DNA of 64,000 nt from a phage: sequence record OZ335964.1; one strand, given 5' to 3'. Shown here piece after piece: positions 1 through 57,056 of this stretch. Positions within the stretch are counted from its first letter, which is position 1. Each line of letters begins with the position of its first letter. The position numbers and the translations under genes are program-made. The notes beneath the pieces were generated by a model. That model saw only the letters and a program-made list of their open reading frames with translations. It did no database searches and was not told where the DNA came from.

Positions 1-739
1 CACACCCGTTATCAATAAACAATGAATCGATCGGACCTTCTAAGAAATACACTGGTTTGCTCGGATCGGCGCGTTCAAGACCATAGACCTTACTCGCTAA
101 CTCATGAGTTTTAATCGTCATATATTTGGTCTTTCCGTAATCCTTTCTCAATGCTCGCCCCTGAATGGATTCTATCTTGTTCTCACGGTTAAAGATAGGA
201 ATCACTAAACGCGGTTCAGGTTGTGGATTCTTGAAAGTATCAGCTTTAATGTGATTTGCTACCTTTTGCCATTCTCTCGTGAAATACAGAAGATCCCATT
301 TATCGTGAGGAATACAGCGATCACTAACATACTTTACTATAGGATGATTAGCCGGAAGAGTATCTAATCTCTCGCAGAAAGGCAATGTTTGCACTTTCTT
401 AATCTCCGGCTTTTCTACCTTTTTCAGTGGCTTGAACGTGGTGTTCTTGTGGTCGCCTTGTTCCTTCCGTCTCTCCATAAGCCATTCCCTGAATAGGTCC
501 GGCTTATACTGTTTGAGAAATTCACCTAACGGCTGATTGTAGTTACAGTTGAAACAACCACAACGCAAACTATCCTTATAGGTATAGATACGGAATCGCG
601 CCATTGTGCTATTCTTTTTGGAATCTCCGCAGATCGGACAACTTGCTACTAACGTAAATGAGTTAGTATGTAACCGCTTGAAATTTCGTTCGCCGTATAA
701 TGCTTTTTCGGCTATTTCATAATCTGCGTAGTAAATCAT
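1..739 (-). CDS. 61: DNA primase gp61, partial (C-terminus cut by window edge; ATG at 737-739)
   Basis: Reverse translation from 739 gives MIYYADYEIAEKALYGERNFK...CPICGDSK...CFNCNY (zinc ribbon) and ...PRLVIPIFN...YFLEGPIDSLF, matching recalled T4 gp61; lies downstream of gene 41 as in T4. Not in ORF track because open at window edge. Confidence 0.85.
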   Translation of the reverse strand, partial: MIYYADYEIAEKALYGERNFKRLHTNSFTLVASCPICGDSKKNSTMARFRIYTYKDSLRCGCFNCNYNQPLGEFLKQYKPDLFREWLMERRKEQGDHKNTTFKPLKKVEKPEIKKVQTLPFCERLDTLPANHPIVKYVSDRCIPHDKWDLLYFTREWQKVANHIKADTFKNPQPEPRLVIPIFNRENKIESIQGRALRKDYGKTKYMTIKTHELASKVYGLERADPSKPVYFLEGPIDSLFIDNGC

Positions 740-746
740 AAGATCC

Positions 747-1310
747 TCACTGTATATTTTTACTTCTTTGCTTTCCTATCCAGATCCGTCTAACTGTTTC
801 CGCATTAACATCATATATTTTTGCGATCTTTGCCGCAGATCCGGTTCCTTTTAGAGTTTTGATTTCTTCAATCTGATCTTTGGTTAATTTAGCCCAATGG
901 TGTGCATCACCATAACACGAACTCAGACCGTGTGTCAATGCATGAATCTGATTTTCTGATTGTGTAACCCATTCAAGATTATATAGGTCATGGTTTCTTT
1001 TGTTTCCATCGATATGATTAACAAACGGCAAATTGTTTACGTTTGGTATAAACGCTTCTGCTTTTGCTCTGTGTATGTATATCGATAGAGATTTAACCCT
1101 AGACCCTGAACTAGTTTTATTACCGTAAGGATCTCTGATTCTTGCTACGGCGTATCCACCGCTTCTTCCGGCTACAGATTCTCTATAAATCTTTCCTGTT
1201 TTCTTGTTTCTAATGCGTCCATATGAGCTAACCTCGTAGCCTGGCATTTCGACGCCCATATAAACAAGGTCTTTCCATTCTTCTGGATGTTCGTCACAAT
1301 ACCGTTTCAT
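747..1310 (-). CDS. free-standing HNH homing endonuclease (HNH_3-type with C-terminal HTH)
   Basis: Motif FVNHIDGNKRNHDLYNLEWVTQSENQIHA plus C-terminal helix-turn-helix AKIAKIYDVNAETVRRIWIGK; sits between primase and the 61.x-region ORFs. Confidence 0.8.
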   Translation of the reverse strand: MKRYCDEHPEEWKDLVYMGVEMPGYEVSSYGRIRNKKTGKIYRESVAGRSGGYAVARIRDPYGNKTSSGSRVKSLSIYIHRAKAEAFIPNVNNLPFVNHIDGNKRNHDLYNLEWVTQSENQIHALTHGLSSCYGDAHHWAKLTKDQIEEIKTLKGTGSAAKIAKIYDVNAETVRRIWIGKQRSKNIQ

Positions 1311-1325
1311 GATGTTATTAACCTC

Positions 1326-1529
1326 TTATAGCTCAAATTTCATGAAAGTTCCTACACTTTCATTTTCATTCTCTCCGTTCTCATCTAAGCCAAATTTGTA
1401 GACACTACCATCTGGCGATGTGTAAGAGAATACACGAAAACGGCCTACCGGATCAAGTTCCATGAACTCATATTCTTTTCCGGCTTCAAACAGTGCATAT
1501 GTGCTCTTAAGACATTTCATCGTAATCAT
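1326..1529 (-). CDS. hypothetical protein (67 aa)
   Basis: Co-oriented ORF in 61-41 interval; no recognisable motif. Confidence 0.35.
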   Translation of the reverse strand: MITMKCLKSTYALFEAGKEYEFMELDPVGRFRVFSYTSPDGSVYKFGLDENGENENESVGTFMKFEL

Positions 1530-1717
1530 TTAAGTGCCACCGACAACAGAATGAGAACTACACCAACATACATTGTGATCTCGGATAACTTTTCTGTTTT
1601 TGTTTTGTGTCCAGATAATCCGAAAACAACAACACCGATAATAGCGGACAGCAAGCCAACGATAAACATGATGATACTAAGCACCGTCTTTCTCCTTCTT
1701 GCGTTTTTCTTTACCAA
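1526..1717 (-). CDS. small membrane protein (63 aa)
   Basis: Two hydrophobic stretches (LSIIMFIVGLLSAIIGVVVFGL; MYVGVVLILLSVAL); stop/start overlap with neighbour. Confidence 0.4.
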   Translation of the reverse strand: MVKKNARRRKTVLSIIMFIVGLLSAIIGVVVFGLSGHKTKTEKLSEITMYVGVVLILLSVALK

Positions 1718-1849
1718 CTACACTAGGTCCACGATTGGTAATAGATCCGCTCGTTTCCCCCGCTGCGATCTTCTCAGGATTGCCGCCAGCATCGCCAGCG
1801 GTCATATCTTCTTTGAGTTTATTTTCTTCAACAAACTGTTTAAAGCCAA

Positions 1850-2224
1850 TCATAGAATAATCTCTTTCAGTAAGTCAACAATCTGGTCTTTCGTCAGTTT
1901 ATCCTGATTCTCTACAATCTTGATGACACAAGCGTTAACATCTTTGCGAGTCACGCGGGAGATCGTTTTAATACGATGAAACGGTTCGTAGAAATATACT
2001 GCTTCATTATAGAGCGCAGCAATTTTTCGACGCATTTGATCTTTATCAGCCAGAAAAACAATTGCAGTTTTCGGATCTACGCCAGCCACATCATAAAGTT
2101 CGGCGACTCCCCAGCGTCCTTCCGGTTCAATCATTCCGGCGTGTTTACCGTCGATAAAAATAAGAATATCTCCGTTGAATGCGGTTTTGAATGCTACATC
2201 TTCCGGCGTAATCATATTTTTCAT
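1850..2224 (-). CDS. hypothetical protein (124 aa)
   Basis: Co-oriented ORF in 61-41 interval (T4 61.1-61.5 region by synteny). Confidence 0.45.
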   Translation of the reverse strand: MKNMITPEDVAFKTAFNGDILIFIDGKHAGMIEPEGRWGVAELYDVAGVDPKTAIVFLADKDQMRRKIAALYNEAVYFYEPFHRIKTISRVTRKDVNACVIKIVENQDKLTKDQIVDLLKEIIL

Positions 2225-2254
2225 AATATAGTCTCCTTAGAGTTTCATTATAGA

Positions 2255-2890
2255 TCAAGCGAATGTAGAAAGCAAATGTTTTGTTTCTTTCAGTTGTCGT
2301 TCAAGATCTTTGCGTTTCTCTTTAAGTTGCATTTTAGCATTGTTTCGCTGTTTTTCAACATCTTTATCGATGTGCTTAGTCCAATTATCAATATCAGAAT
2401 AAGTTGGCATACCCAATTCTAAGCCTAATGCGGTTGGATACAGGGTAACAGTCCATAAACCGCTAATCTTCTTAAATAGGTCGGGATGTAGTGTACTACC
2501 TACATCTTCCGGTGTCAACTCTTTTTCTTCTTTCAGTGGTGGGATCTCGTCATATGGTTCCAGCGCATTTACTTTAATATCAGATACCTCATCAAAGAAT
2601 CCGCGTACATCCGCAGGAAATACACAGGCAATTTCCCAACCGTGATCACGCAGAGAAGTAATATTTTTCACTCCCCCACCATGCGTGATGATTGATGTGA
2701 CATTGCCATCAAGGTCCACCGAATTTACGAGAAATGGCTTATCGTCTGTCAGATCATTATAAAACTGTGCTTCGGCTGTAGTCATCTCCAGAAACAGATC
2801 TCGGATCGGACGACCATCAGGTGCGTTACCTTCCTTGAGAGTATAAAAGCGACTTACGATCCATTTTGGCGGTAAAGCATTAGCGATCAT
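2255..2890 (-). CDS. hypothetical protein (211 aa), 61.x-region
   Basis: Co-oriented ORF immediately downstream of gene 41; coding-like composition; no motif recognised. Confidence 0.45.
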   Translation of the reverse strand: MIANALPPKWIVSRFYTLKEGNAPDGRPIRDLFLEMTTAEAQFYNDLTDDKPFLVNSVDLDGNVTSIITHGGGVKNITSLRDHGWEIACVFPADVRGFFDEVSDIKVNALEPYDEIPPLKEEKELTPEDVGSTLHPDLFKKISGLWTVTLYPTALGLELGMPTYSDIDNWTKHIDKDVEKQRNNAKMQLKEKRKDLERQLKETKHLLSTFA

Positions 2891-2940
2891 GTTATATCTC
2901 CTATCAAATCATTCACCAGCGCCCCGTAGGGCGCATTTTA

Positions 2941-4353
2941 TTAGAAAGTCATGTTATTTGCTAGCTCGTCGAGTTTTTCTCGTTTCTCGGCTTGCTGTGC
3001 GCTTTGTGGTTTAACTTGTGCATTCTCCTGATCTGCGATCTGGTTTGGAACTTCATACCAACGCTGATTTCCTTTTTTCACACCAACGTTAAACCGTGAA
3101 TAGTAGTTCTTATCGCCGTAACGAGACTTGATCTGCTTCATGAGTTGAACGCCCATTTTAGCAAGGTCTTCGGTTTCGATAACACCCAACATAAAATCGG
3201 CTGTAGCCGGAAGACCTGCTGATTCAGCGGTATCACTCATGTTAAGGTCTGACGCATCCCAACCCGCGCGGGTAGTCTGTGCCGCAGTCCAACCAACAAC
3301 ATCCCACTTAACAAAAAAACCTCGCAGTTCTTCCGCAATCGCCTTAACTAGTGTGTAACTATTTTCAGAGTATACACGCAAGCGAGACGATGCGCAAATC
3401 CCCAGATAGTCAACAATCACAACATCAGGTTTAAACTGTTTCTTGAGTCGCAATTCATTCATTAACGCCTCAAAGTGATTGGAGTTCGCGCCACCAGTCG
3501 GATACTGCTTGATCATCAATTTTCCAACCGGACGATCTCCGATCTTCTTATTCTTAACACGCTTCATACGTGCGGAATATTCCGCAAAAGAAACATTACC
3601 ATTATCCAATTCATCTAATGTAATGTCAAGCAAGTTTGCGTCAATACGTTTGGCTACGACATGCTCTGCCATCTCCATTGAGATATACAATACATCATAA
3701 CCACATTCCATATAATCCGCAGCAAGAGAACACAATCCAAGCGATTTACCAACATTTACACCAGCAAGCAACACATTTAGCGTTTTTCTTTCCGCCCCTC
3801 CTTTCGTGATTTTATTCAACATCGGCAGCTTAAACGGGATCTTATTCGCTTTAGTCTGATATAGCAAGAATCGTTTTTCAAAGTCATTAAACCAGTCATG
3901 ACCTACATCAGAATCAAACGTAATGGATAGTGCTTCCTGCATGATCTCAGGAATAGCTCCCTCACCCGGCAATTTCTTATTCTGTTTCTCTTTTGGTAGT
4001 TGTGCGTTCGCTTGAATCTCTAGCGCCCGTGACATTGCATTGTACATAGCGCGGTCGCGGATAAATTTTTCGGTTTCCTTCATTAACCAATCAAGGTCTT
4101 CCGGTGTATTCTCCAGCGAATCGAGAAGAGTTTTAGCCCCTTCATATGTTGTCTGATTGCCTCTCTCCTTGTCTAAAGCAATCTGTAATGCAGTTGGCGT
4201 AGGAATGTTGGAATATTCGTCTACGTGCTTTTTAATCAGCTTATAAATCAGTTTTTCTTCGTCTTCGGTGAAGTAGTCCGCTTTAAGATGAGGCCATACA
4301 TTCGTAAAGAATGCGCCATTGTAAATCAACTGTGAAAAGATAGTTTTAATCAT
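2941..4353 (-). CDS. 41: replicative DNA helicase gp41 (DnaB-like)
   Basis: 470 aa; Walker A LLAGVNVGKSLGLCS; strong collinear similarity to recalled T4 gp41 (e.g. ...QYPTGGA..., ...WTAAQ..., ...IKSRYGDKN...). Confidence 0.92.
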   Translation of the reverse strand: MIKTIFSQLIYNGAFFTNVWPHLKADYFTEDEEKLIYKLIKKHVDEYSNIPTPTALQIALDKERGNQTTYEGAKTLLDSLENTPEDLDWLMKETEKFIRDRAMYNAMSRALEIQANAQLPKEKQNKKLPGEGAIPEIMQEALSITFDSDVGHDWFNDFEKRFLLYQTKANKIPFKLPMLNKITKGGAERKTLNVLLAGVNVGKSLGLCSLAADYMECGYDVLYISMEMAEHVVAKRIDANLLDITLDELDNGNVSFAEYSARMKRVKNKKIGDRPVGKLMIKQYPTGGANSNHFEALMNELRLKKQFKPDVVIVDYLGICASSRLRVYSENSYTLVKAIAEELRGFFVKWDVVGWTAAQTTRAGWDASDLNMSDTAESAGLPATADFMLGVIETEDLAKMGVQLMKQIKSRYGDKNYYSRFNVGVKKGNQRWYEVPNQIADQENAQVKPQSAQQAEKREKLDELANNMTF

Positions 4354-4667
4354 ACATAGCCCCCAACTACACGCATAACAAAGGTCTTGAGTTTATACCA
4401 GAAAGTTTCTTTTTTCAACTTTTCTTCTGCTTCTTTGATTTGCGCTGTTAACGCCTTAATGACGTGAGGATATACCACATCACGATCTGACGGCGTGGAG
4501 TAGTCGACCACAATACCTTTAGTGTCTGGATCGTATTCAACATTATGAATATAGACAATATGATGTTCTCCCTCTTCATCAACAATTATCAATTCCTGAA
4601 TAACTGTCTTCATTGCTTCTTGAATCAAGCCGTGTGCTTCTTCTAAACTGGTTGGTTTCTTATCCAT
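4350..4667 (-). CDS. 40: gp40-like protein (head vertex assembly chaperone by synteny)
   Basis: 105 aa ORF between uvsX and 41 exactly as T4 gene 40; stop overlaps start of 41. Assignment by position only. Confidence 0.45.
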   Translation of the reverse strand: MDKKPTSLEEAHGLIQEAMKTVIQELIIVDEEGEHHIVYIHNVEYDPDTKGIVVDYSTPSDRDVVYPHVIKALTAQIKEAEEKLKKETFWYKLKTFVMRVVGGYV

Positions 4668-4687
4668 AATATAATCCTCTCTAGATA

Positions 4688-4710
4688 TGAAAAAGGGGCA
4701 CGTAGCCCCT
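4688..4710 (-). terminator. rho-independent terminator after uvsX
   Basis: Minus strand reads GGGGC-uacgu-GCCCC followed by UUUUUCAU directly after the uvsX stop. Confidence 0.55.
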
Positions 4711-4722
4711 TTACTACCATTG

Positions 4723-5793
4723 TTATGCTAACATATCTTCGATTTCTTTGTCAACTGCTTCGTCGCTGATCACTTGCCCCAGCTTATAATGATCGTTGAT
4801 TGCTTCGTTAAACTTATCGTTTGTCAGAAGTGGTTTCCAGAACTCAATGCTATTGGTTTCTTTAGCACGGAACTTGCGTTCTTCGGTTTCCATCTCTCCG
4901 GTCTCCGTATTCAGGATTGAACGAGAATACCAGCCGTTTGACGGTTTCACTACCCAACCTAACTCTACAGCCAACTCCAGCAAACCGGAATAAGGATCGA
5001 TGCCACCGCTAAACGTTACGCTAATCGGGAACTTAGATTTTTCTTTAACGGTTCGTGATTTTTCCGCATTCAGGATAAAATCATAGCCAGTAATTTCGGT
5101 TCCTTCTTTCTGCTGACGACGACCAATAATGAAAACTTCATTGGCTGAATACATCGCGCCCGTACCGCCGGACATAACGGTCTTACTAAACATTTCTTGC
5201 GTTTCGTAAGTGTGGTTAATAGCGATGCACGGGATATCATTCATAGTCAGATATGGCGTCACCATACGGAACAAGCCTTTAAGTGCTTTAGCTCGCGTCA
5301 TATCCTGTGCGGATTTCTCATTAATCGCGTCTTCAACTTCTTTTTTACTTGCTAAGTTACCGATTGAGTCAATAAAGATGATCACTTTATCTTCACGGGT
5401 AATTTGCTCAAGCTGGTTCATGATTTCAAATTTAAGTTCTTCGATGTTCTTGATTGGAACATGCACCACGCGATCAGGATCTACACCCATAGATTCAAGA
5501 TAAGCGGATGTAATACCGAACTCAGAATCAAAGAACAAACACGCCGCATCAGGATTCTGTTTCATGTATGCACTAACGCAAGTTAATCCCATGTTTGATT
5601 TAAAGTGCTTAGACGGACCAGCAAAGAAAATCAGACCAGATTGAAAGCCTTTTTTAAGATCACCGGAAAACGCAATATTCAGCATCGGGATCTTAGTGCG
5701 AGTATTTGTTTTTTCGTTAAAGAAGCTGGATTTAGACAGTACCGCAGTAGTTTTCAGGGTAGAGTTCTTTTTCAGTTTTTCCAGTACAGACAT
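4723..5793 (-). CDS. uvsX: recombinase UvsX (RecA-like)
   Basis: N-terminus ...FFNEKTNTRTKIPMLNIAFSGDLKKGFQSGLIFFAGPSKHFKSN... closely parallels recalled T4 UvsX; P-loop GPSKHFKS. Confidence 0.9.
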   Translation of the reverse strand: MSVLEKLKKNSTLKTTAVLSKSSFFNEKTNTRTKIPMLNIAFSGDLKKGFQSGLIFFAGPSKHFKSNMGLTCVSAYMKQNPDAACLFFDSEFGITSAYLESMGVDPDRVVHVPIKNIEELKFEIMNQLEQITREDKVIIFIDSIGNLASKKEVEDAINEKSAQDMTRAKALKGLFRMVTPYLTMNDIPCIAINHTYETQEMFSKTVMSGGTGAMYSANEVFIIGRRQQKEGTEITGYDFILNAEKSRTVKEKSKFPISVTFSGGIDPYSGLLELAVELGWVVKPSNGWYSRSILNTETGEMETEERKFRAKETNSIEFWKPLLTNDKFNEAINDHYKLGQVISDEAVDKEIEDMLA

Positions 5794-5804
5794 TATTAAT
5801 ACCT

Positions 5805-6032
5805 CTATTCAGTTAATCCGTAATACTTTAATTGCTTCATTGTTATTCGATCTTTGTAGTGCTCTTGAATTAACTTTTTCATCGCATCAACATCGATCGT
5901 CACAAATACTTCGTTGCTGTGATTTCCGTGAACTTTCTTGAAATGCTCTATGCCTTCCTCACGTTCACGTTTAATCTTTTCAATGTCTCTCATAGTATAT
6001 TTCTCACGTTGGCGGGTATCGTCACCCAACAC
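5805..6032 (-). CDS. hypothetical protein (75 aa)
   Basis: Only ORF between uvsX and polymerase; T4 carries beta-gt/42/imm here. Confidence 0.35.
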   Translation of the reverse strand: MLGDDTRQREKYTMRDIEKIKREREEGIEHFKKVHGNHSNEVFVTIDVDAMKKLIQEHYKDRITMKQLKYYGLTE

Positions 6033-6054
6033 CCGCCATTATACACACTTTATC

Positions 6055-7239
6055 TTAAATGTCAAACAGGTCAGTCAGAGAAGCAACTTTTTCATATTGC
6101 AGCTTTGCAGCCGTGGTAATGTTCTCCAGTGGTTTGACGAAAGTCTTATTAAACAACAAAGGCCAGTCTAACCACTTTAACACCTCGCTTTCAATTTCTG
6201 GAGGAATACGAGTACCGGACAACCAACCAAAACAGATTTCTCCAAACGGATTTCGATCTTTAAGCGGTACGATCATAACCTTCTCGCCTTCACGAATCGG
6301 ATCTAGTCCGAATTTTCGAGCATTACGATTATAACACAATACACTCTTAACCGCATACGGACAACCCTTAATCGGATACCCGTTTGAATCGCTGTATTTC
6401 TGTAGGTTGTTTGCAGATGATACCGCAGCAACCTCAAGATAGTCAAGTTTTCTAAACTCTTGCTCAAAAATACCGTAGTATTCCTGTAGCGATTCTTCCC
6501 CTTCCTGCAACATACGGCGAATACATTCTTTCAGTGATTTCTGACATGCTTTAGGGGTGGAGCTACGTTGCGTTTCCAAGCCCATGATTTTTAGCTTAGG
6601 TTCAGCAAAGCGCGTTCCTTCCATATCCCAAACATTAAGAGCATAACGCTTTTTGCCAGTCCAGAATCCACCGATACCCGCAGATTTCAACGGAGGACCA
6701 GCAATTGCCTCACGGTCCATAAACATCAAGTGCTCATAGTTATTCATGTACTCGCATAACTCGCGATATCCCTTGTCGATAATAGGTTCCATCCGATGTT
6801 TACCGAAATTATCAAGGAAGTCAACAAGTTTTTCGGTATCGTCGAAACGGTCTTCCCCGCCAACCTTATCAACAACATTGTTAACCAGCACATAAACGGA
6901 GTCAGTATCACAATAACGAACATATGCAAAATCAGTTGTTCCGCAAAGCTCGTTTAAGTATTCGTTAATCTTACGCTCAATCCATCTAATAGCGACCTGT
7001 CCAAATAGCGTAATCGCACTAGCATTACGCAGATCGTATAGGCGGAAACGTGGATTCCCAAGCGCGCCATAAAGGCTATTAATCAATACCTTACGAGAAA
7101 GCTGGTTTGTATTACATAAAACCGATTCGTTTTGACAATAGGTTAATAACTGCTTTAACTCATCTACAGACATTGACTCGAATTGTTCTAGCTGTTCGTC
7201 GGTGAAGTCTGAACGAACATCAATATTTTTAATATCCAA
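6055..7239 (-). CDS. 43: DNA polymerase gp43, C-terminal fragment (polymerase domain; '43B')
   Basis: 394 aa; starts just before KVLINSLYG (motif A), contains YCDTDS (motif C) and WTGKKRYA; collinear with the C-terminal ~390 aa of recalled T4 gp43. Probable TTG start preceded by GGGGGTGA SD. Confidence 0.9.
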   Translation of the reverse strand: MDIKNIDVRSDFTDEQLEQFESMSVDELKQLLTYCQNESVLCNTNQLSRKVLINSLYGALGNPRFRLYDLRNASAITLFGQVAIRWIERKINEYLNELCGTTDFAYVRYCDTDSVYVLVNNVVDKVGGEDRFDDTEKLVDFLDNFGKHRMEPIIDKGYRELCEYMNNYEHLMFMDREAIAGPPLKSAGIGGFWTGKKRYALNVWDMEGTRFAEPKLKIMGLETQRSSTPKACQKSLKECIRRMLQEGEESLQEYYGIFEQEFRKLDYLEVAAVSSANNLQKYSDSNGYPIKGCPYAVKSVLCYNRNARKFGLDPIREGEKVMIVPLKDRNPFGEICFGWLSGTRIPPEIESEVLKWLDWPLLFNKTFVKPLENITTAAKLQYEKVASLTDLFDI

Positions 7240-7259
7240 TATTTCACCCCCATCAACGA

Positions 7260-7817
7260 TTAATGTATAATTGCATATTCGCCATGATATTGTACTATAT
7301 GCCTATTATACGCGTCAATAGCTTCTTCTTCCGAATCAAAGTATCCTATATGATGCGTCTCGTGGTTTACTGTTATTCGAACACGCCATTTATCATAACC
7401 TCTCACCTTTGAGATTCCTTTGTATTTTGAAGTCCTTCCCTCAATAGAAATTGATCCATTGCTATTAATCTGATTTTCGTTATGAGAAGCCGCCCTTAAA
7501 TTTTCAATTCTATTATTGGTTCGAACTCTATCAACATGATCTATTTGAGTTTTTCCATTAATAGGTCTTTCCTTGCTAGGACAATGACCATGAAACATAT
7601 GGTATATCACACGATGAATTTTTCTAGCTTTGCCATCTATCCAAACTTTGCAATATCCTTGCTTGTCAGGAAACCTCCCGATCACCTGACCTTTTTGTGC
7701 TTGACTGCTGGTAGATATCTTTCTAATCAATATTCCATCGTCATATTGAAATAATCTGTGATAGAGTTCATAAAGTCTCTTATCTTCGTCATTGTAATGA
7801 ATAACTTGATACATCAC
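7260..7817 (-). CDS. HNH-AP2 homing endonuclease inserted within gene 43
   Basis: HNH motif QIDHVDRVRTNNRIENLRAASHNENQ followed by AP2-like DNA-binding module YKGISKVRGYDKWRVRITVNHETHHIGYFDSEEEAIDAYN; start overlaps stop of 43 N-fragment. Confidence 0.8.
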   Translation of the reverse strand: MMYQVIHYNDEDKRLYELYHRLFQYDDGILIRKISTSSQAQKGQVIGRFPDKQGYCKVWIDGKARKIHRVIYHMFHGHCPSKERPINGKTQIDHVDRVRTNNRIENLRAASHNENQINSNGSISIEGRTSKYKGISKVRGYDKWRVRITVNHETHHIGYFDSEEEAIDAYNRHIVQYHGEYAIIH

Positions 7818-9331
7818 AACTCACCTCGCTTCTTCAATATTTCTTTTATTCGTTCAGCATTACGGTCACACGCCAACATCATGTTTTTGTACTGCTTACG
7901 CTGATCGAATACTTTCTTGATCTCAATCGGTATAATTCCATGAATATCTTTACGATACATCCAACCGTTAGGAGAACACGAGTATTCATCGCTAGGTCGT
8001 GGTGCTGTCTTATTAACATAATCATCAATTGGCGCGGCTTCAAACGATCCAGCGATTGTTTCCGGCGAAATGTTAACCTGTCGAATAATAGATGGGTACA
8101 GACTTGTTAAGTCAAAGCTCATCATCCAACGGTAAGCATTAGGTACTGGCTCTTTTACGAATGCGCCCGGATAAGTCTGCTTAGGCTGTATCTTATTTTC
8201 CGGTACTACTTTACCCTCAGCTTTCAGAGATCCGAAGATAATAGCATCCCATACTTTCATCGGGTTATAAACATGGTTAAATTTAATCTTTGCATAGAAA
8301 CATAGACTATACACAAGATCGATAAATCCACGCTTTTTATCAATCGCCAGCACACGATCAACGTCGCCGATGTTATAATCGATGTAAAGTTGATGGTTAT
8401 CATCACGCAATTTCTTTAACGGACCATCATAATCAACCTTACCGATTCCTGTCTCATATTCAGCAACATAATCTAATGCATATGTTGGTTGAGTCGTAAA
8501 GCTAAATTTCTTGTATAAGTCAATGTAGTCAAGGCTTTCGATCCCCATGATCGTAAATGCTTCACGCTCGTTGCCAAAATCATCCTGTGAGATTCGGGAT
8601 TTAATCTTACCGCACGGGCTTAGACGGTTAGCGGTTCTACTTCCGAACTTATTACTGATACGTTTAATGATATATGGAATATCGAATGTTTCTGTGTTCC
8701 AGCCAGTGAAACCAACGGGTCGGTTTTCCTCAAAGAATCGGATGTATTCTAACAGCAATTCATCTTCTGTATCATAGACGTTATAAACAACGCGCTCTAC
8801 AATATCAGGTCGAAGAATAGACTTTCTTGCTTCCCAGATTTCACCGTTTTTTCCTTTCAAATCAAACACAAAGAAACGATCATGTACGGAATCATAATGC
8901 GTAATTGCATCGATAGGATATTTCGCTTCTTCTGGTTTAGGAAATTCCGGTGCAGTGACCTCGATATCAACCCATGCTACACGGATTTTATTTCGGTCAT
9001 ATCGAATCTCGCCTTTATATGTATCGGACAGATAGGAGATGATAAAATCATCCATCCCTAGCGCCTCTTGCCCCATTTCCCCCATCTTTTTACGCCATTT
9101 GTTGGCCTCGTTCATAGATGGGAATTTTTTAGCAATGCAAGGCTTGCCATAGATATCTTTATAATTTGTAACCATACCAGGCGCGGCATGATGAAATAAA
9201 GTTGGCGTATATTCAACGTAACGCTCTTGTTCTTGTCCAGCATCATCAATATAACGCTCGTAGATCTTATCACCTACTCGCTCACATGACAGAAAATACA
9301 TAATATAAACTCCTTCACTTACGAAAGACAC
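7814..9331 (-). CDS. 43: DNA polymerase gp43, N-terminal fragment (3'-5' exonuclease/N-terminal domains; '43A')
   Basis: 505 aa; collinear with N-terminal ~500 aa of recalled T4 gp43 (ERYIDD...REVEY.P..F, FTGWN.E.FDIPYI, LDYIDLYKKFSFT.QP.Y.LDY, MSFDLTSLYPSIIRQVNISPETIAG). Confidence 0.9.
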   Translation of the reverse strand: MSFVSEGVYIMYFLSCERVGDKIYERYIDDAGQEQERYVEYTPTLFHHAAPGMVTNYKDIYGKPCIAKKFPSMNEANKWRKKMGEMGQEALGMDDFIISYLSDTYKGEIRYDRNKIRVAWVDIEVTAPEFPKPEEAKYPIDAITHYDSVHDRFFVFDLKGKNGEIWEARKSILRPDIVERVVYNVYDTEDELLLEYIRFFEENRPVGFTGWNTETFDIPYIIKRISNKFGSRTANRLSPCGKIKSRISQDDFGNEREAFTIMGIESLDYIDLYKKFSFTTQPTYALDYVAEYETGIGKVDYDGPLKKLRDDNHQLYIDYNIGDVDRVLAIDKKRGFIDLVYSLCFYAKIKFNHVYNPMKVWDAIIFGSLKAEGKVVPENKIQPKQTYPGAFVKEPVPNAYRWMMSFDLTSLYPSIIRQVNISPETIAGSFEAAPIDDYVNKTAPRPSDEYSCSPNGWMYRKDIHGIIPIEIKKVFDQRKQYKNMMLACDRNAERIKEILKKRGEL

Positions 9332-9383
9332 TCATTATAGGGGAATCGACTTAGTTTGTCAATACCCCTATCCCATCAGTATC

Positions 9384-9746
9384 TTATCGCCCGATCTGAT
9401 ATTTCTCGATCAGCGTCCACTCTTCTTTCTGTTTAAAAGACAGTACACGGAAATTATTAACTTCTGTAGTTTCAAAATCACTATCAATCAGGGTGCATAG
9501 ATTCCACTGCGCAAGAAGTTTTGCAATATTATTACGGCGCAATTCATCTTCCCACGTCATCTTAACACTACGACCATCTAATTTCAACAACTCCTTGAAA
9601 TGAACGATGTAATAGCGCCCCTTCTTCTGGAGAATATGACAAGACTGATACAGTGTCTTGTCTCGATTGTTGGCAATGCCGCAGCGGGTTAAAGTCTCCT
9701 TAATTTTAAGGAAGTTTTCAGGATTAATCAAATTAATTTCAATCAT
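9384..9746 (-). CDS. regA: translational repressor RegA
   Basis: 120 aa; MIEINLINPENFLKIKETLTRCGIANNRDKTLYQSCHILQKKGRYYIVHFKE... nearly collinear with recalled T4 RegA. Confidence 0.9.
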   Translation of the reverse strand: MIEINLINPENFLKIKETLTRCGIANNRDKTLYQSCHILQKKGRYYIVHFKELLKLDGRSVKMTWEDELRRNNIAKLLAQWNLCTLIDSDFETTEVNNFRVLSFKQKEEWTLIEKYQIGR

Positions 9747-9747
9747 T

Positions 9748-10326
9748 TTACCACCTTTCTATAATCTTTTTAAGTCGTTTCCTTTCTGTCTGATTCTTAG
9801 TAACACCCGCCAAAAGTTCATCGGTCGCATACGGTTTAATGTGCTTCAATAACTTGTCCATATATCCCTTTTCATTAGCCAAATCGAGATAAAATCGGGC
9901 GTCATCCATATTTACACAATATGCTTTCGCCACTGCCATTAAAACCAATTTTTGGTCTAATTCTTCTGTTAGTTTAGCCCATTTACCGTATCGTTTCCCC
10001 TTAGAAATACTCTGTAAGAGATAATCAAAATGCATTTGATCTGGGAGGCCATGACCGATTAAATTCATCACATACGCGCTATATAGGCAATCTGCGTGCT
10101 GGGAAAGAGCGGTATTAATCCATCTCTGATTGTATGCAGAATTATTCCCAACATTAACGCGCTGTTTATCTAAGGTGATATGATCCATCAGAGCAAATAA
10201 TGCATTGTCGGTTTTCTCGGTGAATGTGTCCGCTAGTTCAGACACTTTTTCCCAATCACGAGAGCGCCATGCAATTTCATGCTCGTTTAATTGTGTATCA
10301 TCTTCACCGAAAAATTGACCTAACAT
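9748..10326 (-). CDS. 62: clamp loader small subunit gp62
   Basis: 192 aa; ...QLNEHEIAW.S.DW..., ...YVMNLIGHGL..., ...KGKRYGKWAKL... match recalled T4 gp62; between regA and 44. Confidence 0.85.
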   Translation of the reverse strand: MLGQFFGEDDTQLNEHEIAWRSRDWEKVSELADTFTEKTDNALFALMDHITLDKQRVNVGNNSAYNQRWINTALSQHADCLYSAYVMNLIGHGLPDQMHFDYLLQSISKGKRYGKWAKLTEELDQKLVLMAVAKAYCVNMDDARFYLDLANEKGYMDKLLKHIKPYATDELLAGVTKNQTERKRLKKIIERW

Positions 10327-53971: not shown

Positions 53972-54562
53972 TTACTTTCTAAAAGCAGGGTGCATAGCTT
54001 TAATACCTTCCACCCGCTGACGATCCGCCGCCTGAATTGCAGGGCGAGGAACGATCAGTTGACCATCACGTTCAATGCTCATTGTTTTAAAGGGAAGAAT
54101 TGCAGTACACACCAGAGATTCATGCATATCATCGGTGTATGTTAACTCAAGTTCCCCCAATTGTGAACACCAACAACCATAAAAGTTAAAAGTGCACACA
54201 ATGTTACGGCGTTCGTTGTCCATCATGTGAACTTGAACGGCTTCCGGCATTGAATCCTTCCACGCAGTGGAGTTACCGTTATTGTAGTCTACTATAGAAA
54301 GCATCCATGTGTAAAGGTTTAGATAGCTTTCTAGATGTTCATCGACAATAAACCGAACGACCAACGGGTCAAACTCCACATGACTAGACGGATAATCAGC
54401 GACCGCCAAACCATATTGACCAGCAACTTGCTTAGTCGGTGGAATGGTTATAGCCGGAAGTGTAACACCTTGACAGTTTAAAGTAAAGCCTTTTGTTAGC
54501 TGTCCATCTGGAATATTGATCTGCCAGTTGCTAGGGTTAGCATAGTTAAAGAGATTAGACAT
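53972..54562 (-). CDS. 3: gp3-like tail completion/sheath stabiliser protein
   Basis: 196 aa ORF between genes 1 and 2, as T4 gene 3; by position and size. Confidence 0.5.
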   Translation of the reverse strand: MSNLFNYANPSNWQINIPDGQLTKGFTLNCQGVTLPAITIPPTKQVAGQYGLAVADYPSSHVEFDPLVVRFIVDEHLESYLNLYTWMLSIVDYNNGNSTAWKDSMPEAVQVHMMDNERRNIVCTFNFYGCWCSQLGELELTYTDDMHESLVCTAILPFKTMSIERDGQLIVPRPAIQAADRQRVEGIKAMHPAFRK

Positions 54563-55036: not shown

Positions 55037-56179
55037 TTAACTATTGATCATATCAATGACGTTTTGTAGCTCTGATATGGATAGCGTTTCTGTATATCCA
55101 TCGGGCATATCTTCTTTACTAACATAGAAACCTTTATACTTTTTCTTTATTGCACATTCCATAGAAAGAGCATCATCACCGTTATCGTATTTTTTATAAA
55201 ATGTCAACTCATGACGAAATATAGATTTTGAAGATTGGTTTTGTATTCTTTTTATTAATCTGTTGTTGGTTATACCAAATTTTATAGCAACCGCAACATC
55301 TTCTTTGTATAAAGTTTGTACATAAATGTATGCAGGTTTATTCCTCTTAAATCCATGATTGCTACACATAGGGCAACCGCTATTTTTTGATACGTAGTCT
55401 CCTAAGTTTGGCGTAAATTCATGTCCGCTACTACAACGCATTACCAATTTTGTTTTTAGCATTCCTCTATACTCACCGCCAACAAAATCAACAAATGTAT
55501 CACCTTTATCAATCGCCTTATCTGTTATTTCCTTTACTACTTGCTCAGTTGACTTCTTGTTTTTACCTGAACATAGTTTACATCTAGATCCATTAACTAA
55601 AAACGAGTGACCAGATGCAGTATATTCATGTCCATTAGGACATTTAACTAAGATATTTCTTTCATAAAAATCTTTATAATCAGACACATAGCCAATAACT
55701 TCGTGGTCTTTTTGGGCATTCCTCATCTCTGTTAGCAACTCTTCGCTATTCCAGCGTTTACCCTTAACGCAGAGACAACCATGACCTTGATAAAGATATA
55801 TAAATTTCTTAGTAAAGTTTTTGTTACAGTCAGGGCAGTGCATTAGTAATTCTGTCATTTGACCTGTATACCCTTTAGGAATATCGATCAATGTGTATTT
55901 TCCGCATATTGTCTTTAATGCATCATCTATTCTTTCTTTGGTCCAGCGTAAGCGACCAGTGCATTCATGACATTTTACACCCAGTCTAAGAGTATCTAAA
56001 CTAAATATAGTTGACGTATGTCCTTTATCACATTTTAACTTAAATCTAGTATCCTTTGCGTTGGTGTATTCTCCAACTAGACCATACCATTCATAACCAC
56101 ATGGGATATGTTCTTTTACCTTCTCTAGATATACACCGAACGGTCTAGGAACTGAATTAGGTTTTCTTTCTTTAGTCAT
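55037..56179 (-). CDS. zinc-ribbon-repeat protein with C-terminal T5orf172 (GIY-YIG-like) domain; putative free-standing endonuclease
   Basis: Four ~55-aa repeats each with G-H...C-x2-C (e.g. KCDKGHTS...KCHEC; KCPNGHEY...CKLC; RCSSGHEF...CPMC) then ...PAYIYVQTLYKEDVAVAIKFGITNNRLIKRIQ...; inserted between genes 3 and 2. Confidence 0.45.
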   Translation of the reverse strand: MTKERKPNSVPRPFGVYLEKVKEHIPCGYEWYGLVGEYTNAKDTRFKLKCDKGHTSTIFSLDTLRLGVKCHECTGRLRWTKERIDDALKTICGKYTLIDIPKGYTGQMTELLMHCPDCNKNFTKKFIYLYQGHGCLCVKGKRWNSEELLTEMRNAQKDHEVIGYVSDYKDFYERNILVKCPNGHEYTASGHSFLVNGSRCKLCSGKNKKSTEQVVKEITDKAIDKGDTFVDFVGGEYRGMLKTKLVMRCSSGHEFTPNLGDYVSKNSGCPMCSNHGFKRNKPAYIYVQTLYKEDVAVAIKFGITNNRLIKRIQNQSSKSIFRHELTFYKKYDNGDDALSMECAIKKKYKGFYVSKEDMPDGYTETLSISELQNVIDMINS

Positions 56180-56234: not shown

Positions 56235-57056
56235 TTAAAACAATTTCCACACCTTACGAGCATCATATTTCTTGTCTTTGCTCATAAACTGGTAGGTCGG
56301 AAGATACACGACCGTGCTCCAATCTTTTGGTGCGATCTCAATCAGTTTTGTTTGGATGTGTCCAGGCAAATATGCTTTGATCATGTGGTCTGCGCCTCTC
56401 ATACCTTTAACATCACTCCATTTAATTTTTAAACGAGTTTTATTACTAAGAGTAGGTGTACTCGCGTATTGTCGCAACAACGCTTCTAAGAACTGCTGGC
56501 GAGCTTTAGGTGGCGCATAGTGCAAGTTCAAACCTAGCATAATCTCGTTTCCCGCTTTAGATGTACCAAATCCTAGACAGATAATCAAGGGGTATCGGTC
56601 AAAGAATGGCAAAGAATCCCGATATTTTGGGTTATACGCATAAGTATAGATCCGTCCCACTTGTGGTTTTACTACCTGATGACCTTTTACACCCGCCTTG
56701 ATAGTCTTCATAAACCATTCTTGCGACTTCTCTTTAGGGCGACTCTTTGATACAGCACGCATAGACGCACGAAAATCATTAATCATCATCATTGCGCGTT
56801 GCTGCTTATTGAGACCCTTTGCGCCTTTCCCTTTTAGTTTTTCAACTTCTATTGCTGTTTTAATTTCGCTGGCATAACGAGACATACTTTTAGTGAAAGT
56901 TGCATAGGCTATTCCCTTAGAATCTGCAAATGCTTTAGCTGTCATGCCTTTGGCTTTTGCTTTCGCAAATTCTACACCCAATTCGACCCACTGTTTAGAC
57001 TTTCGTTTTTGGGGAGACGGCTTTTCGTCTTCTGTGATTATTTCAAATACGCTCAT
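56235..57056 (-). CDS. 2: gp2-like DNA end-protector protein
   Basis: 273 aa (T4 gp2 ~274 aa) immediately upstream of gene 4; assignment by synteny and size. Confidence 0.55.
   Translation of the reverse strand: MSVFEIITEDEKPSPQKRKSKQWVELGVEFAKAKAKGMTAKAFADSKGIAYATFTKSMSRYASEIKTAIEVEKLKGKGAKGLNKQQRAMMMINDFRASMRAVSKSRPKEKSQEWFMKTIKAGVKGHQVVKPQVGRIYTYAYNPKYRDSLPFFDRYPLIICLGFGTSKAGNEIMLGLNLHYAPPKARQQFLEALLRQYASTPTLSNKTRLKIKWSDVKGMRGADHMIKAYLPGHIQTKLIEIAPKDWSTVVYLPTYQFMSKDKKYDARKVWKLF

Follow-up and report, generated by a model that had tools for sequence, protein, structure and literature searches.

Why does a gene for an HNH endonuclease stand directly before the primase gene of a T4-type phage, and does it behave as a mobile element or as a chance passenger of a mosaic genome? 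The locus lies close to the left end of the window, which is the whole stretch of 64,000 nucleotides of phage DNA that we analysed (record OZ335964.1). Megablast of positions 1-4400 identified the window as a Krischvirus, that is, an RB49-like T4-type phage of E. coli, and the top matches to this region, with 97.3-97.6% identity, were Cognac, TB34, KMB43, SAP, ECD7 and Whisky. As judged by the annotated RB49 and ECD7 genomes, the minus strand carries, in this order, the gene 41 helicase (2941..4353), Dc2, Dc1, 61.1, a small membrane ORF, a 67-aa ORF, the HNH ORF and gene 61. The last three of these are:

1326..1529, minus strand: 67-aa ORF upstream of the HNH ORF, homolog of RB49p017 (ORF list, annotation, alignments).
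747..1310, minus strand: HNH ORF of 187 aa with an ATG start (ORF list, Pfam, PHROG, AlphaFold2 model, I-HmuI match).
1..739, minus strand: 5' part of primase gene 61, cut off by the left edge of the window (gp61 as annotated in RB49 and ECD7 matches it at 97% on the DNA level).

Both the HNH ORF and its primase neighbour had been recognized in a first-pass annotation of this DNA, and both are confirmed here. The distance between them, given there as 8 nt, is 7 nt: the HNH ORF ends with TGA at 749..747, and the primase starts with ATG at 739..737. The same annotation saw in the ORF a homing-type nuclease gene hitch-hiking beside an essential gene. Our analysis supports this proposal by a presence/absence polymorphism among relatives, by intact catalytic residues and by evidence of mobility. 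We consider the ORF likely to be a free-standing homing endonuclease gene (HEG) which spreads by intronless homing.

Comparison with relatives lacking the insertion, a check suggested in the first-pass annotation, allowed the boundaries of the mobile unit to be read directly from the aligned sequences. Three features describe it:

740..1316, minus strand: inserted cassette of 577 bp (alignment with RB49, ECD7 and FL20, 18-sequence alignment, coverage in 61 records).
1322..1325, minus strand: ancestral Shine-Dalgarno sequence of gene 61, GAGG, now used by the HNH ORF (sequence, comparison with RB49).
744..748, minus strand: replacement Shine-Dalgarno sequence of gene 61, GAGGA (sequence, spacing equal to that of the native RB49 site).

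All 577 bp of the cassette are missing from RB49, whose coding strand reads TAA-GAGG-TTAAT-ATG(gene 61). The coding strand of the window reads TAA-GAGG-TTAAT-[AACATC-ATG...HNH...CAG-TGAGGATCTT]-ATG(gene 61), with the insert in square brackets. The cassette is placed exactly between the primase ribosome-binding site and the primase ATG; its junction is ambiguous by 1 nt (A), and a target-site duplication is absent. The stop codon of the 67-aa ORF abuts the ancestral ribosome-binding site, which the HNH ORF takes over at the long spacing of 11 nt (GAGG-TTAATAACATC-ATG). Gene 61, in turn, receives its new GAGGA from the last codons and the stop of the HNH ORF. This motif overlaps the TGA, and its distance to the primase ATG, 5 nt, is that of the native GAGG-TTAAT-ATG of RB49. 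Phage FL20, which has a different allele at this site, likewise carries a ribosome-binding site, GAGAGGTG, 5 nt before the ATG.

Matches to promoter and terminator consensus sequences between positions 400 and 3100 were at chance level, and no T4 late promoter (TATAAATA) was found within 39 kb of the HNH gene. By consensus search, the cassette is promoter-less. An Rfam search of window positions 1-10000 gave no match at E<=1, neither to a group I intron nor to any other RNA. As Rfam shows no intron there, and as the gene has a start and a stop codon of its own and stands between two other ORFs, it is free-standing. Shuffling of the PeSL type (PMC2839356) was rejected, as neither cassette border has a promoter or stem-loop and consensus sites occur at chance level. 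An RNA hairpin masking the ribosome-binding site and AUG of the HNH ORF, as in Aeh1 mobE, was also rejected: a 7-bp UUUCAUG/CAUGAAA stem is predicted, with z = -0.03 relative to shuffled sequences. The start region of gene 61 folds no better than shuffled sequences either (z = -0.65). The base composition of the cassette is not foreign, with 38.8% GC compared to 40.2 +/- 2.3% for the window.

The domains and catalytic residues of the protein can be read directly from its sequence. Pfam assigns an HNH_3 domain to residues 78-121 (30 bits, cut-off 24.8) and a NUMOD4 domain to residues 10-47 (26 bits, cut-off 23.4). The NUMOD4 domain was absent from the first-pass description of the ORF. A resolvase-type HTH_7 match at residues 141-177 reached 17.1 bits, under its cut-off of 23.8. 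The AlphaFold2 model, built from 42 homologs and with a mean pLDDT of 90.4, predicts an N-terminal beta-sheet domain, a beta-beta-alpha core and three C-terminal helices (144-152, 159-166 and 170-178). I-HmuI (1U3E) was the only significant match in the PDB, both by sequence (phmmer E 7e-5, identity ~23%) and by fold (Foldseek E 3.6e-6 over 187 columns, with a TM of 0.47-0.50 that refers to an elongated multi-domain protein). The first-pass classification as an HNH_3 type with a C-terminal helix-turn-helix therefore holds, the former through the Pfam match above cut-off, the latter through the three modelled helices together with the full-length fold match to I-HmuI. Furthermore, the protein falls into HNH endonuclease families of PHROG (E 1e-37) and matches the 'homing endonuclease' model of PADLOC (E 4e-12), while NCBIfam gave no match. 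The family is very large, with 2,279 matches at E<=1e-5.

In the family alignment of 42 sequences, N98, H99, G102, K104, N120 and H123 are invariant, H80 and R81 are nearly invariant, and N111 is at least 90% conserved; the FL20-type protein has Gly at the position of N111. N98, H99, N111 and N120 align with D74, H75, N87 and N96 of I-HmuI, reportedly the metal ligands, general base and structural Asn of that enzyme. Since the active-site residues are conserved and align with those of I-HmuI, the catalytic machinery is intact; a loss of HNH residues, which the first-pass annotation had named as an argument against its proposal, has not occurred. At the position of the first metal ligand, the protein has Asn (N98) and I-HmuI has Asp74, which counts against the homing reading; this Asn is invariant across the family. 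By domain content and modelled fold, the protein is an HNH_3, I-HmuI-like endonuclease with a NUMOD4-HNH_3-HTH architecture and a predicted nuclease activity.

A gene of this kind should be unevenly distributed if it is mobile, and the first-pass annotation had named its presence in all related genomes as the contrary outcome, which is clearly not what the records show. Presence and absence were read directly from the Krischvirus records, in detail from an alignment of a 4.4-kb region in 18 sequences, and for the remaining records by coverage (61 records) and by identity to a 150-nt patch of gene 61. The HNH protein occurs at the same site in seven of about 60 records, corresponding to six phages, with 99.5-100% amino-acid identity: ECD7 (two records), Cognac, Whisky, TB34, SAP and KMB43, the last being the only one below 100% (99.5%). 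About 50 records have an empty site and cover the window query in two pieces, with 577 bp missing. FL20 encodes at the same site a 184-aa paralog with 55.7% identity, and an allele of the FL20 type is also present on a metagenomic contig (L017). The next relatives, ~40% and ~36% identical, occupy different positions in other Krischvirus genomes, in both cases immediately before a conserved gene (nrdC.11 in JSE, gene 31 in KFS-EC). At the DNA level, the window cassette shows two synonymous differences to all carrier copies, at positions 768 and 1293. The identical protein of ECD7 (YP_009601983.1, HNH_1) is already annotated as "HNH homing endonuclease", and so are others. Searches for further copies of the cassette retrieved only ECD7 itself from IMG/VR and none from the JGI metagenomes.

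Direct evidence for movement between lineages comes from a metagenomic Logan contig (L016, SRR18080419), which carries a 97%-identical cassette at the same junctions (15 of 577 nt differ) between flanks that are ~15% diverged from the window and at best 85% identical to any phage record. Counted per 100 nt, the window and the contig differ at 8-19 positions through gene 61, at 1-5 inside the cassette and at 13 beyond position 1400, in the upstream ORF, followed by 11 differences in the last 57 aligned nt. The block of low divergence extends over ~693..1330. The synonymous divergence (pS) follows the same pattern, with 0.085 for the HNH ORF, 0.54 for the primase and 0.38 for the upstream ORF. 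The divergence of the cassette, far lower than that of the flanks, and its identical junctions show that it entered one of the two lineages recently, by lateral transfer. The dN/dS of the HNH ORF between the window and the contig, 0.13, indicates that the protein is under purifying selection.

A possible second trace of movement was read from the flank, in the form of a gene-61 variant that is linked to the cassette:

596..739, minus strand: HEG-linked haplotype of the gene-61 5' end, ~140 nt (haplotype alignments).

The first ~140 nt of gene 61 exist in two haplotypes with 25 differences over 150 positions; elsewhere, identity within the genus is ~97%. Type A is found in all carriers, and also in the HEG-less phages JK32 and AV108. 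Type B is found in 49 records, all of them HEG-less, with a uniform identity of 82.7-83.3% to the window. The differences cluster at 602-626 and 644-710, with six changes within the 9 nt at 644-652, and the amino-acid changes of type A in the N-terminal region of the primase are I14L, S26N, C32A, H44S and Q46M. The 29 nt of gene 61 that adjoin the junction, as well as the side of the ribosome-binding site, are identical in carriers and non-carriers. Three recombination breakpoints are nested in the 140 bp beside the insert: the change to type B falls between 626 and 644 in the carrier Whisky and between 680 and 700 in AV108, whose site is empty; JK32, also with an empty site, is of type A right up to the junction and has its breakpoint at 710-739. 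Mosaic patches without any HEG are also present nearby, for example at 1925-2108.

No cassette-linked polymorphism was detected in the upstream flank among the 18 sequences of the detailed alignment. Linkage on the gene-61 side only fits damage and repair on that side, and the type A tract is a candidate co-conversion tract, a candidate protected target region, or both. For annotation, the mobile element would explain why the 5' end of gene 61 diverges locally in these phages. Because JK32 and AV108 have the type A patch without a HEG, no single flank polymorphism distinguishes the carriers from phages without the gene, and the patch is not necessarily a determinant of immunity. The six database carriers are ~97% identical, and the linkage among them could partly reflect shared descent.

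Patchy occurrence and transfer could also arise from the high general recombination of T4-type phages, with the gene as a passive passenger and no repair induced by an endonuclease. Krischvirus mosaics do contain many exchanged patches with no nuclease nearby, the one at 1925-2108 among them, and JK32 and AV108 possess the flank patch without the gene. Such a reading could also draw on the literature, in which we found no study of the HNH_1 gene or its copies, the Krischvirus papers mentioning only variable numbers of HNH genes. Yet the low dN/dS and the intact active site argue for a working protein, and a cassette with the same junctions in a 15% diverged lineage, with low divergence confined to ~693..1330, looks targeted. 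Together with the concentration of breakpoints within 140 bp of the insert, this makes a mere passenger decidedly unlikely.

Intronless homing, the reading we prefer, would proceed in several steps, for which we infer the cleavage, its nature as a nick or a cut, the position of the target and the drive. During mixed infection, the enzyme would nick or cut the allele that lacks the HEG, at the empty site itself or somewhere in the first ~100 nt of gene 61. The damage would then be repaired by phage recombination from the HEG-bearing genome, which would copy in the cassette together with a short stretch of gene 61 (co-conversion). The carrier itself would be protected, as the insert splits the site, or as the 5' end of gene 61 differs, or by both. 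Once in place, the cassette would be co-transcribed with its neighbours. It would do little harm and be hard to lose, with the old ribosome-binding site now at a poor spacing and gene 61 depending on the one that the cassette brings along. By analogy to I-HmuI, MobA and MobE (PMC2988022), nicking of one strand is the probable mode of action. The T4 literature still counts the way in which nicking leads to homing among its open questions (PMC2988022).

The position of the target bears on how the HEG-less phages with a type A patch are understood. If the target lies in nt ~30-100 of gene 61, for example at 644-652, then JK32 and AV108 are possibly empty alleles that are resistant. If it spans the junction between ribosome-binding site and ATG, they are possibly uninvaded relatives, and their patch is hitch-hiking donor DNA. 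A target of the latter geometry, in which the enzyme recognises the intact junction, immunity stems solely from the insert and the gene-61 patch is donor sequence dragged along, would agree with the identity of carriers and non-carriers in the ribosome-binding side and in the 29 gene-61 nt by the junction, and with the empty site and full carrier-type patch of JK32. It would also agree with the behavior of the closest structural relative, I-HmuI, which is intron-encoded; intron-encoded enzymes cut close to their insertion site, and I-HmuI acts a few nt from its own. In contrast, cleavage by free-standing T4 endonucleases is typically tens to thousands of bp away from the gene (PMC2988022), the cluster of six changes in 9 nt (644-652) points into gene 61, and the FL20-type paralog is inherited with its own 180-nt gene-61 patch as if the two were one unit. 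We regard the junction as a possible target, although the balance of these points leads us to doubt it somewhat.

The FL20 allele extends the picture of intronless homing at this site. Its HNH ORF is identical to that of the window over the first ~60 nt and different from there on to ~557, inside gene 61, where the diverged patch comprises 180 nt (557-734). The body of the nuclease and the 5' end of the primase gene thus appear to have been exchanged as one block. The window-type and FL20-type alleles, with 56% amino-acid identity, might even compete for the slot before gene 61, each with its own primase 5' variant. We think this rather unlikely. If each enzyme did attack the flank of the other, the pair would be a free-standing counterpart of the contest between I-HmuI and I-HmuII. 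Selfish nucleases would then drive the amino-acid diversification of an essential primase, at the start of its zinc-binding domain, and would be hard to delete, as they carry the primase ribosome-binding site.

The same observations could be turned around, to say that the nuclease has been domesticated or weaponised and is kept for a benefit to the phage, such as the exclusion of markers of co-infecting Krischvirus phages or the control of gene 61 expression. The ribosome-binding site of gene 61 is now inside the cassette, and two nuclease alleles at one site, each with its own primase 5' variant, recall the competition of I-HmuI and I-HmuII (PMC2988022). However, ~85% of the sequenced relatives do well without the gene, and marker exclusion is a by-product of homing that requires no separate mechanism. 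A role of this kind is therefore highly improbable in our view.

Besides the gene before the primase, the first-pass annotation counted two further homing-type nucleases in the window. All three ORFs are present, and the other two are also polymorphic among relatives, but the domains ascribed to these two fared less well. An HNH_3 ORF at 7260..7817 splits gene 43 into two halves; Pfam detected no AP2 domain in it at E<=0.1. The best match of its protein in the phage collection does not exceed 45% identity, and no phage record has this insert at that site of gene 43. The second, a 380-aa ORF at 55037..56179 between genes 3 and 2, is present in five of 64 records and contains CapR and zinc-finger domains; its T5orf172 match is weak (E 0.007) and below the Pfam cut-off.

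By itself, the gene before the primase would be a textbook selfish element. Its practical value lies in a natural series of alleles at one site: empty sites next to the common flank, empty sites next to a flank of the carrier type (JK32, AV108), Whisky as a recombinant carrier, the FL20 allele, and a copy in a ~15% diverged lineage. With these alleles, the target of an I-HmuI-like free-standing nuclease could be mapped and nick-driven homing put to the test.

Several known systems resemble the one described here in part. Co-conversion and nicking by the HNH enzymes MobA, MobE and I-HmuI belong to the published paradigm of T4 biology, with which the observations here agree, and the seg and mob genes of T4 are promoter-less cassettes that rely on upstream transcription and are more easily retained when signals of the downstream gene are embedded in them (PMC2988022). 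The free-standing HNH endonucleases MobA-MobE, with MobE between nrdA and nrdB, share with the window a promoter-less, co-transcribed cassette in the same orientation as its neighbours and a sporadic distribution (PMC2988022); there, the embedded signal is a promoter, whereas the window cassette embeds a ribosome-binding site. Membership of the T4 Mob family was rejected in a comparison with MobE, which gave a BLASTP E of 1 and belongs to Pfam HNH (PF01844), as opposed to HNH_3 plus NUMOD4 in the window. SegF/SegG and SegH/Hef of the T-even phages resemble the window in the short co-conversion of a neighbouring essential gene, a putative event in our case, deduced from genome comparison. Seg proteins belong to the GIY-YIG enzymes and produce double-strand breaks. 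SegH and Hef are moreover different endonuclease genes in one intergenic slot of different phages, comparable to the FL20-type and window-type alleles. The PeSL ORFan cassettes of RB49 and phi1 (PMC2839356) differ in being bordered by a promoter plus stem-loop, which the window cassette lacks.

The closest likeness in structure is to I-HmuI, a nicking homing endonuclease of Bacillus phage SPO1 with the relatives I-HmuII and I-BasI. Enzymes of this type nick one strand and exclude flanking markers (PMC2988022). Shared with I-HmuI are the NUMOD4 beta-sheet DNA-binding domain, the HNH motif (H...N...N) and the C-terminal helix-turn-helix. The two differ in sequence (~23% identity), in the first metal ligand (Asp74 versus Asn98 in the window) and in location, as I-HmuI resides inside a group I intron of a DNA polymerase gene, whereas the gene of the window is free-standing before a primase gene. 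The HNH gene is thus I-HmuI-like in fold and architecture, and T4 Mob/Seg-like in lifestyle.

The slot before the primase gene 61, which holds a 187-aa HNH ORF in the window, is occupied by a second type of HNH allele in phage FL20 and in a metagenomic contig, and paralogs lie at other loci within Krischvirus.

HNH genes related to the primase-side ORF
FL20 (L003) 744-1298 and metagenomic contig L017 3001-3555: FL20-type HNH allele, 184 aa, in the slot before gene 61
JSE (L020) 1495-2025: NUMOD4-HNH paralog, directly upstream of nrdC.11
KFS-EC (L021) 1465-2076: NUMOD4-HNH paralog, directly upstream of gene 31

The FL20-type protein is 55.7% identical to that of the window. Over the opening ~60 nt of the ORF the two alleles are the same; beyond this they diverge, and the divergence extends through 180 nt of gene 61. 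Because the FL20-type protein carries a Gly at the position of the nearly invariant family residue N111, and scores under the Pfam threshold for HNH_3, it may be impaired. The JSE and KFS-EC paralogs are 36-41% identical to the window's primase-side protein and, judging from their positions upstream of nrdC.11 and gene 31, the NUMOD4-HNH family has settled in several slots across the genus.

In JK32 and AV108 the site before gene 61 is empty, yet the 5' end of gene 61 has the haplotype common to all phages carrying the cassette, complete in JK32 and complete save for the three positions closest to the junction in AV108. These phages may represent resistant empty alleles, uninvaded ancestors, or genomes from which the cassette was lost by recombination.

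Further upstream, a mosaic patch (1925-2108) lies in the Dc1 ORF (1850..2224), with ~40 densely spaced differences and a 3-nt deletion near 2075. Here the window agrees with JK32 only, every other aligned relative being different, and no nuclease gene is connected with the patch. A small ORF overlaps the 61.1 ORF (1677..1853) and in related genomes is either annotated at 47-52 aa or left without annotation. Its start, read here as TTG, is uncertain.
1526-1717, minus strand: 63-aa ORF with a TTG start, small predicted membrane protein

Another HNH ORF interrupts the DNA polymerase gene 43 (6055-9331, minus strand), leaving two separate polymerase ORFs.

The split gene 43
7814..9331, minus strand: gene 43 N-terminal ORF, 505 aa
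7260..7817, minus strand: HNH_3 ORF, 185 aa, between the two gene 43 parts
6055..7239, minus strand: gene 43 C-terminal ORF, 394 aa

The first-pass annotation had described this insert as an HNH-AP2 ORF; the HNH_3 ORF is present, but Pfam detects no AP2 domain, and Rfam no intron in 1-10000. No phage record has the window's insert at the same site, and the closest match to its protein in a collection of 50,697 records reaches at most 45% identity. Gene 43 of ECD7, MIZ4, JSE, ELT4, and PTE-Eco09 contains another insert of ~0.5-1.1 kb, unlike that of the window. The gene 43 insert may be of greater novelty than the primase-side HNH gene.

An ORF does lie between tail gene 3 and gene 2, as noted before, and is found in five of 64 related records. 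The T5orf172 match proposed for it is weak (E 0.007) and below the cut-off; the domains recognized are a CapR-homology domain and a treble-clef zinc-finger.

The gene 3 to gene 2 interval
53972..54562: tail gene 3
55037-56179, minus strand: 380-aa ORF
56235..57056: gene 2

Possible expression signals were found in and around the primase-side HNH ORF.
1300-1345, minus strand: weak predicted hairpin, upstream-ORF end pairing with the HNH start
909-938, minus strand: sigma-70-like match within the HNH ORF, facing gene 61

The hairpin could form between TCATGAAA, at the start of the HNH ORF, and the self-complementary TTTCATGAAA, which lies at the upstream ORF's end, and it would enclose the ribosome-binding site and AUG; its stability is no greater than that of shuffled controls, and it was rejected. 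The sigma-70-like match consists of TTGACA, an 18-nt spacer, and TATGGT preceded by TG, in a region where such matches occur at chance level. It could be an embedded promoter directed at gene 61, comparable to the embedded promoters of some T4 seg/mob genes.
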